Shown here in pieces: positions 16,457-44,421 of a DNA stretch of 64,000 bases. The notes beneath the pieces were generated by a model. The model worked only from the letters and a program-made list of their open reading frames with translations, was not told the origin of the DNA and searched no databases. Each line of letters opens with the position of its first letter. Position 1 is the first letter of the stretch. Origin of the DNA: Escherichia coli (GTDB lineage Bacteria > Pseudomonadota > Gammaproteobacteria > Enterobacterales > Enterobacteriaceae); assembly GCF_013122565.1 (NCBI RefSeq), contig NZ_CP053258.1; one strand, 5' to 3'. The position numbers and the translations under genes are program-made.

Positions 16457-17149
16457 ATGCCACATCACATTGTTATTGTTGAAGATGAGCCGGTTACCCA
16501 GGCGCGATTACAATCCTACTTCACTCAGGAGGGGTATACCGTTTCCGTTACGGCGAGCGGTGCCGGGCTACGGGAAATTATGCAGAATCAGCCGGTGGAT
16601 TTAATTCTGCTGGATATCAACTTGCCCGATGAAAATGGCCTGATGTTAACCCGCGCCCTGCGAGAACGCTCAACGGTGGGGATTATTCTGGTTACCGGAC
16701 GCAGCGATCGGATTGACCGTATTGTCGGGCTGGAAATGGGCGCAGACGATTACGTCACCAAACCGCTGGAACTGCGCGAACTGGTAGTACGGGTGAAAAA
16801 TCTGCTCTGGCGAATCGACCTCGCGCGACAGGCGCAACCGCACACTCAGGACAACTGCTATCGCTTTGCGGGTTATTGCCTGAATGTGTCGCGCCATACG
16901 CTGGAGCGGGATGGCGAGCCGATTAAACTGACCCGCGCAGAGTATGAAATGTTGGTGGCATTTGTGACCAATCCGGGCGAAATTCTCAGCCGTGAACGTC
17001 TGCTGCGTATGCTCTCTGCGCGTCGGGTGGAAAACCCTGACCTGCGCACCGTCGATGTGTTAATTCGTCGTTTACGCCATAAACTCAGCGCGGATTTACT
17101 GGTGACGCAACATGGCGAAGGTTATTTCTTAGCCGCTGATGTGTGCTGA
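16457..17149 (+). CDS. torR: Response regulator TorR (OmpR family)
   Basis: 230 aa MPHHIVIVEDEPVTQARLQSYFTQEGYTVSV... Confidence 0.95.
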   Translation: MPHHIVIVEDEPVTQARLQSYFTQEGYTVSVTASGAGLREIMQNQPVDLILLDINLPDENGLMLTRALRERSTVGIILVTGRSDRIDRIVGLEMGADDYVTKPLELRELVVRVKNLLWRIDLARQAQPHTQDNCYRFAGYCLNVSRHTLERDGEPIKLTRAEYEMLVAFVTNPGEILSRERLLRMLSARRVENPDLRTVDVLIRRLRHKLSADLLVTQHGEGYFLAADVC

Positions 17150-18150
17150 TAAAAATAGACCGGACGAAATCCCCCTGGCGACAGCGAGCGGCGGATATGT
17201 TCACGGTCGGCATTTTTCGGCGTCAGAACTAAAATCGGTGGGCTGACATTATCAGACACCGGTTGCCCCTGTAATTGCCTGATGGCTTGCTCAACCGCCA
17301 GTTCCCCCTGCCAGACCATTTGATCGCTGGCAGCCATAATCACTCTTCCCCGCTTCAGCCCGCGATACACCTGATGTGAAAGATAAAACGACACCACGGT
17401 AAGCGGCGTTTTCAGGTTACGCCCTTCCCCCATTGCCGCCTCTGCCGCAATGGCCGTTCCGGCAACGACGTCGATTTCTGGATGGCGTTCCAGCATCTCC
17501 TGCAACAGGTTACGCTGGATTTCAATATCGTTATCACCAAGCGCAATATCAACAATACGCACCGGGCTTCCGGCAATGGCTGCGCGAAAACCCTCGACCA
17601 TCTCTTTACTGCCCCCGGCGTTATCGGGTCCGGGCATCAACAGCACGTTCAGTGGTTTACCGTGCGCCCATTGCACCAAATATCGCCCAGGTTGATAGCC
17701 CATCTGAAACCAGGGCACACCAACGCGGCTTTTCACCTGGGGATCATCAAGAGCATTTACCAGTTCGATCACCGGCAGATTTGCTACCTGCTTTTGCAGA
17801 TCGGGAAATGAGGTCGTGCTACTACCGAGTAAAATGGCCTCTGCGCCCCACTGTTTACACTGGTCGATTTGTGCTTGCTGGGTAGCCAACTGGCTGTAGC
17901 CGCCTGCCTCCAGCACTTTTAAATCCACACCGTAGCGGCGAGCAGCCTCCTGCATACCATAGTTCAACGATAACCAGTATGAATCTTTCAGGCTGGGATA
18001 AAGCGCGCACAGTTTCCATGCGCGTTTGGCTTTAAGCGGCATAGAGGCTTGCACCGTGAAATGCTGCGCATCATGCCAGCGCAACAGGTTATCAGCCGAA
18101 AATGCCGGCAACATGAAAAGGGAAAGAAGTAAAAATAGCAGTACGCGCAT
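17122..18150 (-). CDS. torT: Periplasmic TMAO-binding protein TorT
   Basis: 342 aa [31 protein letters not shown]...; 3' end overlaps torR 3' end. Confidence 0.94.
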
Positions 18151-18232: not shown

Positions 18233-20977
18233 GTGAATTTAACCCTGACCCGAAGACTCTGGATGGGCTTTGCCCTGATGGCGCTGTTAACCCTGACCAG
18301 TACCCTGGTGGGATGGTACAACCTGCGCTTTATCAGCCAGGTGGAAAAAGACAACACTCAGGCATTGATTCCTACCATGAATATGGCACGCCAGTTGAGC
18401 GAAGCCAGCGCCTGGGAACTTTTCGCCGCGCAGAACCTGACCAGTGCCGATAACGAAAAGATGTGGCAGGCGCAGGGGCGAATGCTCACCGCACAAAGCC
18501 TGAAGATTAATGCGTTGCTGCAAGCGTTACGGGAACAAGGTTTTGATACCACCGCTATTGAACAACAGGAGCAGGAGATCTCCCGTTCGTTACGTCAGCA
18601 AGGGGAACTGGTGGGGCAGCGTTTGCAACTGCGCCAGCAACAACAGCGACTCAGTCAGCAGATAGTCGCCGCCGCCGATGAGATCGCACGCCTGGCGCAA
18701 GGTCAGGCGAATAATGCGGCAACCTCCGCCGGAGCGACCCAGGCCGGGATTTACGATTTGATCGAACAAGATCAGCGTCAGGCTGCTGAAAGTGCACTCG
18801 ATCGGCTGATTGATATCGATCTTGAGTATGTTAACCAGATGAATGAACTGCGCCTTAGCGCTCTGCGGGTGCAGCAAATGGTGATGAATCTGGGGCTGGA
18901 GCAGATCCAGAAAAATGCACCAACGCTGGAAAAGCAGCTCAATAATGCGGTGAAAATTCTGCAACGTCGGCAAATACGCATTGAAGATCCGGGAGTTCGT
19001 GCGCAGGTCGCAACAACGTTAACTACCGTTAGCCAATATAGCGATCTGTTGGCGCTGTTCCAGCAGGACAGTGAAATCAGCAATCACCTGCAAACTCTCG
19101 CCCAAAATAATATCGCCCAGTTCGCGCAGTTTAGTAGCGAAGTCAGTCAGCTGGTCGACACCATTGAGCTGCGCAATAAGCATGGACTGGCGCATCTGGA
19201 AAAAGCCAGTGCACGCGGGCAATACAGCCTGTTATTGCTGGGGATGGTTTCACTTTGCGCACTGATTCTGATCCTCTGGCGCGTGGTTTATCGCTCAGTC
19301 ACGCGTCCACTTGCCGAACAAACGCAGGCGCTGCAACGCTTACTGGACGGTGATATCGACTCCCCTTTCCCGGAAACCGCTGGCGTACGGGAGCTGGATA
19401 CCATCGGGCGGCTGATGGATGCGTTTCGCAGCAGTGTTCATGCACTGAATAGCCACCGCGAACAGCTGGCGGCGCAGGTCAAAGCGCGTACAGCTGAATT
19501 GCAGGAACTGGTGATAGAACACCGACAGGCACGGGCGGAAGCAGAAAAAGCCAGCCAGGCAAAATCGGCGTTTCTGGCGGCGATGAGCCATGAGATCCGC
19601 ACACCGCTGTACGGTATTCTCGGCACCGCACAGCTACTGGCAGATAACCCCACACTTAACGCCCAGCGTGATGATTTGCGGGCAATTACTGACTCTGGTG
19701 AATCGTTGCTGACCATCCTCAACGATATTCTCGATTATTCCGCTATCGAAGCAGGTGGCAAGAATGTTTCGGTCAGCGATGAGCCCTTTGAACCGCGCCC
19801 GCTGCTGGAAAGTACCCTGCAATTAATGAGCGGACGGGTGAAAGATCGCCCGATTCGCCTGGCAACGGCAATTGCCGATGATGTACCGAGCGCGTTAATG
19901 GGCGATCCGCGACGTATTCGTCAGGTTATAACCAACCTGTTGAGCAACGCCCTGCGTTTTACTGACGAAGGGCAGATCGTTTTACGTAGCCGCACTGATG
20001 GCGAGCAATGGCTGGTCGAAGTGGAAGACAGCGGCTGCGGTATTGATCCCGCGAAACTGGCAGAAATCTTCCAGCCATTTGTGCAGGTAAGCGGCAAACG
20101 CGGCGGCACCGGGCTGGGGCTGACTATCAGTAGCCGTCTGGCCCAGGCGATGGGCGGCGAACTGAGCGCCACCAGCACGCCGGAGGTTGGAAGCTGTTTT
20201 TGTTTACGCTTGCCGTTACGTGTTGCCACGGCACCCGTGCCAAAAACAGTCAATCAGGCGGTACGTCTTGACGGTTTACGTTTGCTGTTAATTGAAGATA
20301 ACCCGCTAACCCAGCGAATTACCGTTGAGATGCTGAACACCAGTGGTGCGCAGGTTGTTGCTGTTGGCAATGCCGCGCAGGCTTTAGAGACACTGCAAAA
20401 TAGCGAACCGTTTGCTGCCGCACTGGTGGATTTTGATCTGCCGGATATCGACGGCATTACGCTTGCCCGACAACTGGCACAGCAATATCCGTCGCTGGTT
20501 TTGATTGGCTTTAGCGCCCATGTCATTGACGAAACGCTGCGCCAGCGTACCAGTTCATTATTCCGCGGGATTATCCCTAAACCGGTGCCGCGTGAAGTGC
20601 TCGGTCAGTTACTGGCGCACTATCTCCAACTGCAAGTCAATAACGATCAATCGCTGGATGTATCGCAACTCAATGAAGATGCTCAGTTAATGGGGACGGA
20701 GAAGATCCACGAATGGCTGGTATTATTTACACAACATGCCCTGCCGCTTCTCGATGAAATCGACATTGCCCGCGCCAGTCAGGATAGCGAGAAAATAAAG
20801 CGTGCCGCGCATCAGCTAAAAAGCAGTTGCTCGAGTCTGGGAATGCGTATCGCCAGCCAGCTATGCGCACAACTGGAGCAGCAGCCATTATCTGCCCCCC
20901 TTCCACACGAAGAAATTACACGCAGTGTTGCCGCTCTTGAAGCATGGTTGCATAAGAAAGACCTGAACGCGATTTGA
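18233..20977 (+). CDS. torS: Hybrid sensor kinase TorS
   Basis: 914 codons from GTG at 18233, (M)[22 protein letters not shown]...; HAMP, HisKA (MSHEIRTPL), ATPase, receiver and HPt regions. Confidence 0.9.
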
Positions 20978-21048
20978 ATCAATATCAGCCAGTTAAGAAC
21001 AACTAGAATAGTGGCATTTGGTATGCAACTTAACGGACTGGCAAAATC

Positions 21049-22122
21049 ATGGCAGAGAAAAAAAGAACCCGCTGGCAGCGGCGGCCAGGCACGACGGGCG
21101 GCAAATTACCGTGGAATGACTGGCGCAATGCCACGACCTGGCGTAAAGCGACGCAATTATTACTGTTGGCAATGAATATTTATATTGCCATCACGTTCTG
21201 GTATTGGGTGCGCTATTACGAAACGGCAAGTAGCACGACATTTGTCGCCAGACCGGGAGGTATCGAAGGCTGGCTACCGATTGCCGGTCTGATGAATCTG
21301 AAATATAGCCTTGCAACAGGTCAGTTACCGTCCGTCCACGCCGCCGCGATGCTGTTATTGGTCGCTTTTATCGTCATCAGTCTATTACTCAAAAAGGCCT
21401 TTTGCTCATGGTTATGCCCGGTTGGTACGCTTTCTGAATTAATCGGCGCTCTCGGTAACAAACTATTTGGTCGGCAATGTGTCCTTCCCCGCTGGCTGGA
21501 TATTCCTCTGCGCGGCGTGAAGTATTTGCTGTTGAGTTTTTTTCTCTATATCGCGTTATTGATGCCCGCTCAGGCGATTCACTATTTTATGTTGTCGCCC
21601 TACAGCGTGGTGATGGACGTTAAAATGCTCGATTTCTTTCGTCATATGGGGACCGCGACATTAATCAGCGTGACCGTTTTGCTGATTGCCAGCCTGTTTA
21701 TTCGCCATGCCTGGTGTCGTTATCTTTGCCCATATGGCGCGCTGATGGGCGTGGTTTCGCTATTATCGCCGTTTAAGATTCGTCGCAATGCCGAAAGTTG
21801 TATCGACTGTGGCAAATGCGCAAAAAATTGCCCATCACGGATCCCGGTCGATAAATTAATTCAGGTACGAACAGTGGAATGTACCGGCTGTATGACTTGC
21901 GTAGAGTCATGTCCGGTAGCCTCAACATTGACCTTTTCACTGCAAAAACCTGCAGCAAATAAAAAAGCCTTTGCGTTGTCTGGCTGGTTAATGACGCTAC
22001 TGGTTCTGGGGATTATGTTTGCGGTGATTGGTTACGCAATGTATGCGGGAGTATGGCAAAGCCCGGTGCCGGAGGAATTGTACCGACGCTTAATTCCACA
22101 AACGCCAATGATTGGTCACTAA
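21049..22122 (+). CDS. yccM: Polytopic membrane protein YccM with 4Fe-4S ferredoxin-type motifs
   Basis: 357 aa; CxxCP motifs (CSWLCPVG, CRYLCPYG) and 2x CxxCxxCxxxCP (CIDCGKCAKNCP, CTGCMTCVESCP). Confidence 0.88.
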   Translation: MAEKKRTRWQRRPGTTGGKLPWNDWRNATTWRKATQLLLLAMNIYIAITFWYWVRYYETASSTTFVARPGGIEGWLPIAGLMNLKYSLATGQLPSVHAAAMLLLVAFIVISLLLKKAFCSWLCPVGTLSELIGALGNKLFGRQCVLPRWLDIPLRGVKYLLLSFFLYIALLMPAQAIHYFMLSPYSVVMDVKMLDFFRHMGTATLISVTVLLIASLFIRHAWCRYLCPYGALMGVVSLLSPFKIRRNAESCIDCGKCAKNCPSRIPVDKLIQVRTVECTGCMTCVESCPVASTLTFSLQKPAANKKAFALSGWLMTLLVLGIMFAVIGYAMYAGVWQSPVPEELYRRLIPQTPMIGH

Positions 22123-22169
22123 ATTAGCAACAAGCGGAACATCACCTCGCACGGGTGATGTTCACAAAA

Positions 22170-44401: not shown

Positions 44402-44421
44402 TACTGTACATCCATACAGTA
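44402..44421 (+). promoter_or_regulatory. LexA box (SOS operator) of sulA
   Basis: TACTGTACATCCATACAGTA (CTGT-N8-ACAG) 23 nt upstream of sulA ATG. Confidence 0.85.

Follow-up and report, generated by a model that had tools for sequence, protein, structure and literature searches.

YccM of Escherichia coli, a membrane iron-sulfur protein encoded beside torS, and its probable place in the nitric-oxide response

Introduction

Immediately downstream of torS, in a 64,000-nucleotide stretch of Escherichia coli DNA (contig NZ_CP053258.1 of assembly GCF_013122565.1, hereafter the window), lies yccM, a gene for a membrane iron-sulfur protein. Its position raises the question of whether YccM serves the trimethylamine N-oxide (TMAO) system of its neighbors, as a preliminary description made from the sequence had suggested, or belongs to a different response altogether. 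The operator upstream of the gene and the neighborhoods of its homologues in other phyla point to the nitric-oxide (NO) response. The coding sequence is as follows:

21049 to 22122, plus strand: yccM coding sequence, 357 amino acids plus stop codon, defined as an open reading frame with its translation from an ATG start

The gene starts 71 bp past the end of torS (position 20977), and both genes have the same orientation. In RefSeq E. coli annotation it is labeled yccM, "4Fe-4S binding protein," and its K-12 counterpart is b0992, "putative electron transport protein YccM," from which the YccM of the window differs at five positions, all outside the motifs discussed below. Its neighbors in E. 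coli are torS and gnsA, and 5416 of the 5426 complete E. coli genomes contain the 2.2-kb stretch around it, nearly all at 95% identity or more. Thus, yccM is an already known core gene of E. coli of unknown function. The open reading frame is not a product of chance, because it is near-universal in the species, carries the Fer4_5 domain twice and has conserved motif cysteines. Candidate plasmid copies in E. coli were rejected, as the plasmid matches were almost all to very large or chromosome-sized records. At 49% GC, the base composition offers too little contrast to argue for recent transfer.

An NsrR operator upstream of yccM

The region upstream of yccM carries an operator for NsrR, the NO-sensing repressor, as established by published chromatin immunoprecipitation (ChIP) data together with comparative analysis. 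Two features define it:

20978 to 21048, plus strand: torS-yccM intergenic region, 71 bp, presumed promoter/operator region of yccM
21009 to 21031, no strand assigned: NsrR operator TAGTGGCATTTGGTATGCAACTT, an inverted repeat of the 11-1-11 type whose end lies 18 bp before the ATG of yccM

The box TAGTGGCATTTGGTATGCAACTT is identical to the yccM site of strain CFT073, which was positive in NsrR ChIP-seq with a peak 36 bp from the start codon (PMC5320621). Binding of NsrR at yccM was also recorded by earlier ChIP-chip in K-12, as cited in the same paper (PMC5320621). Within the 64-kb window, this box is the single match of at least 16 of 22 positions to the NsrR consensus AAGATGCATTTnAAATGCATCTT.

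The placement of the box is conserved well beyond Escherichia. In 13 of 16 proteobacterial loci, the best box of the whole 12-17-kb locus (15-18 of 22 positions) lies no more than 250 bp upstream of the yccM orthologue. The 16 loci come from Escherichia, Citrobacter, Providencia, Pragia, Budvicia, Pectobacterium, an unnamed gammaproteobacterium and a Burkholderiales metagenome-assembled genome, and the genes surrounding yccM differ among them. This conservation cannot be put down to chance, because the background of matches of at least 15 of 22 positions is only about 0.05-0.2 per kb.

Strains of E. coli differ by single bases within the box. A comparison of locus L091 (4364-4434) with the window (20978-21048) shows ...GGTATACAACTT in K-12 and ...GGTATGCAACTT in the window and CFT073; the left arm in strain EC416 has TAGTGGTATTT... 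Judged from the box sequences, such one-base differences may alter repressor affinity between lineages.

Sites for other regulators were also sought in this region. A candidate FNR box before yccM was rejected, as the only match has two mismatches and overlaps the torS stop codon, and 61 such matches occur in the window. There is no good LexA box in the torS-yccM gap.

Gene neighborhoods of yccM homologues outside Proteobacteria

Homologous loci were collected by a scan of one genome per species, which gave 586 confirmed loci, of which 80 were kept. All open reading frames of 86 loci other than the window were clustered, and representatives were checked with Pfam and NCBIfam. At least one NO or nitrite gene lies within 6 kb of the yccM homologue in about 32 of 87 loci, and YtfE/RIC and hemerythrins are the most frequent cytoplasmic neighbors.

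In Ignavibacteria and Bacteroidota, tight same-strand arrays encode an Rrf2 regulator, a YccM-like protein, in some cases a hemerythrin, then NrfH and NrfA, with RIC as a replacement in some arrays; the NrfA of these arrays scores 585 bits to Cytochrom_C552. In Acidobacteria, the homologue is adjoined by genes for Crp/Fnr regulators, RIC/YtfE (201 bits to the RIC model), qNOR, an NnrS-like membrane protein and Hcp. Some of these genes flank the homologue directly and on the same strand, with qNOR ending 83 bp upstream at one locus (L068) and RIC 85 bp upstream at another (L056). In Zixibacteria, hcp lies 114 bp downstream of the yccM-like gene.

The most extensive arrangement is found on plasmid pPRO1 of Pelobacter propionicus, where the annotation (L092, 2661-12897) places on one strand nrfH, an insertion sequence, nrfA, a yccM-like gene (43% identity), an HPP-family gene, hcp, a PAS-domain gene, ric and a flavorubredoxin gene. 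This region is a plasmid-borne, single-strand nitrosative-stress island. It continues with DUF6448 and ferredoxin genes, and the element between nrfH and nrfA is IS5-like. Across the family, then, either an NsrR operator or, in other phyla, NO- and nitrite-detoxifying neighbors travel with YccM.

Two further gene families recur at the acidobacterial loci. At nine of them, a family of membrane proteins of 435-653 amino acids is encoded beside the yccM homologue, RIC and qNOR (L037, 7710-9065; L047, 6196-8157; and seven more). Only a long member reaches the Pfam NnrS model (36.9 bits versus a cut-off of 28), and a 451-residue member has no Pfam or NCBIfam match; from these scores, the proteins look like a divergent NnrS-like family. 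At six loci (L023, L024, L041, L047, L055 and L066), a serine-acetyltransferase-like gene with hexapeptide repeats is convergent with the yccM homologue and lies 30-115 bp downstream. In four of the six, what reads as a CysK-like gene comes next.

Architecture and conservation of YccM

The translated protein contains the following features:

21403 to 21420, plus strand: first CX3CP motif, C119-S-W-L-C123-P124, at the end of transmembrane helix 2 that faces the cytoplasm
21715 to 21732, plus strand: second CX3CP motif, C223-R-Y-L-C227-P228, at the end of transmembrane helix 4 that faces the cytoplasm
21799 to 21834, plus strand: first ferredoxin-type cluster motif, C251xxC254xxC257xxxC261-P262 (C251-IDC-GKC-AKNC261-P)
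21880 to 21915, plus strand: second ferredoxin-type cluster motif, C278xxC281xxC284xxxC288-P289 (C278-TGC-MTC-VESC288-P)
21973 to 22119, plus strand: transmembrane helix 5 (about residues 309-332) and a 25-residue predicted periplasmic tail with the conserved residues W336 and, at the C-terminus, His357

Hydropathy gives five hydrophobic segments, at about residues 36-56, 97-117, 157-177, 202-220 and 309-331. Lysine and arginine together number 10 in the N-terminus, four in the loop 118-156 and 12 in the loop 221-308, and two in each of the remaining loops and the C-terminal tail. The positive-inside rule therefore predicts a cytoplasmic location for the N-terminus, the two CX3CP motifs and the ferredoxin domain, and a periplasmic one for the last 25 residues. 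An AlphaFold2 model built on 67 diverse homologues (mean predicted local distance difference test score, pLDDT, 94.3; predicted template-modeling score, pTM, 0.91) repeats the five long helices. It places a short helix at each CX3C (the first at 117-122), a compact ferredoxin domain at 243-297 and helices at 312-332 and 342-354 (C-terminal). With 16 close orthologues only, the pLDDT was 47.5, and the diverse 67-sequence alignment was used instead. No solved structure in the searched copy of the PDB matched the membrane part of the model. YccM is thus predicted to span the inner membrane with five helices and to carry a 2x[4Fe-4S] ferredoxin domain on the cytoplasmic side.

The motifs are strongly conserved. 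A scan of 1.84 billion representative proteins gave 321 clusters at E <= 1e-30, and 67 full-length members of the YccM family, at 28-76% identity, were aligned. Of the 12 cysteines in the motifs, only C288 varies (98% conserved), the other 11 being invariant; P77, G126, R224, P228 and G230 are also invariant, P124 is conserved at 97%, and K158, D190 and W336 at 95-98% (W336 at 95%). Most of the 67 C-terminal tails share a recurring pattern, "(G)HWxS ... HP," and the E. coli protein ends in ...IGH. If the predicted topology is correct, these tail residues may point to a site at the external surface of the membrane.

Pfam finds Fer4_5 (PF12801) in two stretches of YccM, at 78 bits against a cut-off of 22, together with Fer4; there are two repeats above the gathering score, followed by the 2x[4Fe-4S] ferredoxin domain. 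The NCBIfam scores all lie below their cut-offs: 93.4 versus 234 for NapH (NF007013), 90.2 versus 213 for NapH/MauN (TIGR02163), 74 versus 1000 for NosR (NF046105) and 34.1 versus 316.7 for CcoG (TIGR02745). Because every curated cut-off is missed by far, YccM is a relative and not a member of NapH, MauN, NosR and CcoG. On these profile scores, it falls within the NapH/MauN/NosR/CcoG (Fer4_5) superfamily, yet forms a family of its own.

The preliminary description gave the coordinates of the gene exactly and its place immediately downstream of torS in the same orientation correctly, and its broad architecture was correct. It recognized the two CxxCxxCxxxCP clusters (C251-C261-P and C278-C288-P), whose cysteines are kept across the homologues, and its view that the partner of YccM is undefined agrees with the proteobacterial loci, none of which shows an evident partner gene. 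It made a small error in the remaining motifs, which it read as two CxxCP motifs inside membrane segments: no CxxCP occurs anywhere in YccM, and the CX3CP motifs directly follow hydrophobic segments 2 and 4, on the side predicted to face the cytoplasm. Its assignment to the NapH/MauN/CcoG type holds as likeness, in view of the NCBIfam ranking and a BLASTP match to NapH, but not as membership. Similarly, the membrane iron-sulfur architecture agrees with its proposal of an electron carrier, but with both iron-sulfur motifs predicted to be cytoplasmic, transfer across the inner membrane does not follow from it.

A proposed role in the nitric-oxide response

Considering the operator and the neighborhoods together, YccM probably belongs to the NO response. 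On balance, we favor a combined description in which YccM is a stand-alone membrane protein of the NapH/CcoG superfamily, controlled by NsrR, that would act as a quinol-linked electron module for NO-detoxifying or repair proteins. In this scheme, YccM would be produced once NO destroys the cluster of NsrR. By analogy with NapH, it would connect the quinone pool with the cytoplasmic face of the membrane, where electrons would pass through its two [4Fe-4S] clusters; the CX3CP cysteines may form part of this relay or an additional metal site. The acceptors would be proteins of NO detoxification or repair for which no reductant is known, such as YtfE/RIC, hemerythrins and Hcp-type enzymes. To our knowledge, no reductant of YtfE/RIC has been described. 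An acceptor of this kind is suggested because of the regulon and the neighbors of YccM. The specific path, from the quinone pool through two [4Fe-4S] clusters to an NO-detoxifying or repair acceptor, is a tentative proposal and is put forward with low confidence.

Several observations weigh against this reading. The remaining three of the 16 proteobacterial loci have only weak boxes (13-14 of 22 positions), and about two-thirds of all loci have no recognizable NO gene within 6 kb of the homologue; the remote homologues P0129, P0155 and P0189 lie on short or uninformative contigs. A consensus scan found no sigma-70 promoter on the plus strand of the 71-bp gap, and a terminator scan found no terminator between torS and yccM, so that read-through from torS into yccM is possible. 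The gene appears in the ChIP tables of the NsrR study and is absent from its expression tables, and the authors note that some NsrR-bound genes are not differentially expressed (PMC5320621); in the literature examined, NsrR- or NO-dependent expression of yccM was not found. The quinol oxidation, cluster content, electron acceptor and topology of YccM are all features that we infer. Finally, the need for YccM is clearest only for YtfE, because E. coli has Hcr for Hcp and NorW for NorV.

Alternative explanations

One alternative is that YccM is a cupric reductase of the CcoG type, with copper bound by the CX3CP motifs and Cu(II) reduced to Cu(I) by the [4Fe-4S] clusters at the cytoplasmic membrane face, in the service of copper handling or of metallation of a cuproprotein. 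Five predicted helices with the C-terminus outside are common to YccM and CcoG, unlike the four-helix NapH. NnrS is a haem-copper protein, and the NnrS-like genes near homologues in nine acidobacterial loci would fit a link to copper. In addition, a review of copper homeostasis describes YccM as a CcoG homologue without the periplasmic Ig-like domain (PMC7558416). However, the score of YccM with the CcoG model is only 34 bits (cut-off 317) and lies well under the 93 bits of NapH, and neither a FixG_C/Ig-like domain nor a ccoGHIS context is present. Copper-homeostasis genes do not recur in the neighborhoods, and the regulatory site upstream of yccM is that of NsrR rather than CueR or CusR. A copper function is thus unlikely, though it deserves some weight.

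A second alternative stays within NO metabolism. A membrane-bound, NO-inducible, anaerobic NO-consuming activity has been described in an hmp norVW nrfA mutant, and it also persists without NirB and Hcp (PMC5320621). YccM could itself be this activity, either as an iron-sulfur or thiol sink for NO or as a quinol-driven NO reductase. The same study excluded 26 candidate genes, and yccM, which encodes a membrane iron-sulfur protein and has an NsrR-bound upstream region, is not among them (PMC5320621). Homologues lie directly beside qNOR, nrfA, hcp and flavorubredoxin genes. On the other hand, the activity is constitutive when fnr, but not when nsrR, is mutated (PMC5320621), whereas no convincing FNR box precedes yccM. 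YccM also has no recognizable catalytic metal site typical of NO reductases, and co-location of its homologues with dedicated NO reductases favors an accessory over a redundant catalytic role. Overall, we regard direct NO consumption by YccM as rather improbable.

The third alternative is the one raised by the preliminary description, namely that YccM serves the TMAO system as a redox partner, is expressed together with torS and feeds or regulates TMAO respiration. The same-strand position of yccM 71 bp past torS, with no terminator detected in between, is consistent with this, as is the retention of the torS-yccM adjacency in E. albertii and in a divergent Escherichia genome. When TorS, TorT, TorR, TorC and TorA of the window were compared by BLAST with all open reading frames of the 86 other loci, true tor genes were found beside the yccM homologue in two, both from Escherichia. 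The other 84 lack a tor flank. Among them are close orthologues, 64-76% identical, from Citrobacter, Providencia, Pragia and Pectobacterium; those of Citrobacter braakii, Providencia and Pragia are apparently monocistronic and have wholly different neighbors. In Pectobacterium, a gammaproteobacterial metagenome contig and the Burkholderiales metagenome-assembled genome, the orthologue is likewise apparently monocistronic and without tor neighbors.

Regulatory sites give a similar picture. The TorR box CTGTTCATAT occurs in three exact copies on the minus strand between 16376 and 16438, all in the torC-torR gap, and an exact-box scan of the window found none ahead of yccM (20978-21048), where the NsrR operator lies instead. 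The operon controlled by TorR is torCAD, not torS, and TorCAD already has a quinol dehydrogenase of its own, TorC. A tor or TMAO role is therefore unsupported, because tor flanks are confined to Escherichia, no TorR box precedes yccM and an NsrR operator occupies the gap. We consider such a role very unlikely; yccM appears to be a stand-alone gene whose adjacency to torS is incidental, and the earlier functional guess, drawn from that adjacency, was wrong. Within the tor locus itself, the open reading frames of torR (16457-17149, plus strand) and torT (17122-18150, minus strand) overlap by 28 bp at their 3' ends.

A part in sulfur relay and tRNA thiolation, suggested by the listing of yccM under "sulfur relay system, tRNA modification" and by a knockout that is temperature-sensitive like tus mutants (PMC5828445), can be dismissed as barely credible, since the label comes without an experiment, Pfam and NCBIfam give only Fer4-type domains and no Tus/DsrE-like domain, and sulfur-relay genes are not recurrent neighbors of the homologues, though CysE and CysK adjoin six acidobacterial loci.

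Published phenotypes and transcript signals around yccM

Three published studies report phenotypes or expression of yccM, and none of them treats NO (PMC5828445; PMC11673782; PMC11125564). The Keio yccM mutant does not grow at critical high temperature and is partly complemented by a plasmid copy (PMC5828445). It also shows hypersensitivity to blue light, as well as to several stressors applied singly (PMC11673782). In E. coli O157:H7 EDL933, yccM mRNA rises 5.7-fold 2 h after ciprofloxacin, and the gene is tabulated as an SOS gene (PMC11125564). A LexA consensus scan found no LexA box within or around yccM; induction by ciprofloxacin may instead reflect damage to the NsrR cluster. The sole near-consensus LexA (SOS) box in the 64 kb is TACTGTACATCCATACAGTA at 44402-44421, with three mismatches to the 20-mer consensus where none would be expected by chance, and is presumably the sulA operator.

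The genes yccM and gnsA are convergent, and between their stop codons, at about 22136-22163, lies the inverted repeat GGAACATCACC / GGTGATGTTC, which has no T-run and was hence overlooked by the terminator scan; it may be a bidirectional terminator common to both genes. Within the first 14 codons of yccM, at 21069-21088, the minus strand has a terminator-like hairpin, CCGCTGCCAGCGG, followed by a T-run. An antisense transcript, yccM-as, bears a TadA A-to-I editing site (PMC13170351), and this hairpin could be its terminator.

Significance

YccM is among the remaining redox proteins of E. coli of unknown function, and is encoded by a core gene. As the gene itself was known, the gain lies in its reassignment from the Tor/TMAO system to the NO response. 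Since genes of the YccM type occur inside clusters for the detoxification of nitrite and NO in five phyla or more, establishing the function in E. coli would annotate hundreds of environmental genes, and the high-confidence model could guide mutagenesis. A bolder proposal, for which we see only a modest chance, is that YccM is the missing membrane part of the NO defense of E. coli, either as the NO-scavenging activity or as a quinol-driven reductase of YtfE/RIC (of Hcp and hemerythrins in other phyla). If true, the YccM family would be a novel and widely distributed class of electron-input modules for NO stress.

Comparison with known systems

Among curated families, NapH scores highest for YccM. 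In the NapGH quinol dehydrogenase, which serves the periplasmic nitrate reductase, NapH is the membrane subunit; it has four transmembrane helices with both termini in the cytoplasm. The NapH of E. coli (b2204) matches residues 32-288 of YccM by BLASTP at 26% identity (E = 3e-18). The two proteins have in common the order of helices 1-4, a conserved proline loop predicted to be periplasmic, two CX3CP motifs and two CxxCxxCxxxC motifs. NapH (286 amino acids) ends soon after its second cluster motif, and the alignment stops at residue 288 of YccM. In comparison with NapH, YccM is extended by a basic stretch of 30 residues at the N-terminus and, at the other end, by helix 5 and the periplasmic tail, giving five predicted helices with the C-terminus outside. 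The genetic context is also different, as there is no napG or nap operon beside yccM, the true napH lies at another K-12 locus, and no NapG-like neighbor recurs among the 86 loci. Unlike napH, yccM carries an NsrR operator.

In CcoG/FixG/RdxA, the cupric reductase of cbb3 oxidase assembly, the C-terminus past the ferredoxin domain re-crosses the membrane, as predicted for YccM. CcoG has two [4Fe-4S] clusters and two copper sites, and the cbb3 oxidase is absent from E. coli (PMC7558416). Only 25 residues follow helix 5 in YccM, without the FixG_C/Ig-like domain in Pfam, and yccM, unlike the gene for CcoG, is not in a ccoGHIS cluster and has no cco genes nearby. To the NosR/NirI proteins, YccM corresponds in the C-terminal half, aligning to positions 481-661 of the NosR model only (74 bits). 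Both NosR and YccM are linked to nitrogen-oxide metabolism, but YccM is without the large periplasmic FMN-binding N-terminal half (no Pfam FMN_bind match) and is not encoded beside nosZ.

The closest regulatory parallel is the regulon of NsrR in E. coli, which includes hmp, ytfE, hcp and nrfA. Like other members of this regulon (hmp, ytfE, hcp-hcr and others), yccM has an 11-1-11 box and an in vivo ChIP signal, although its box scores below those of ytfE, hcp and hmp (table in PMC5320621). The regulon partners ytfE, hcp and nrfA are physical neighbors of yccM homologues in other phyla. As judged from these gene orders, the regulon of NsrR in E. coli would in effect correspond to the gene cluster that surrounds YccM homologues elsewhere.

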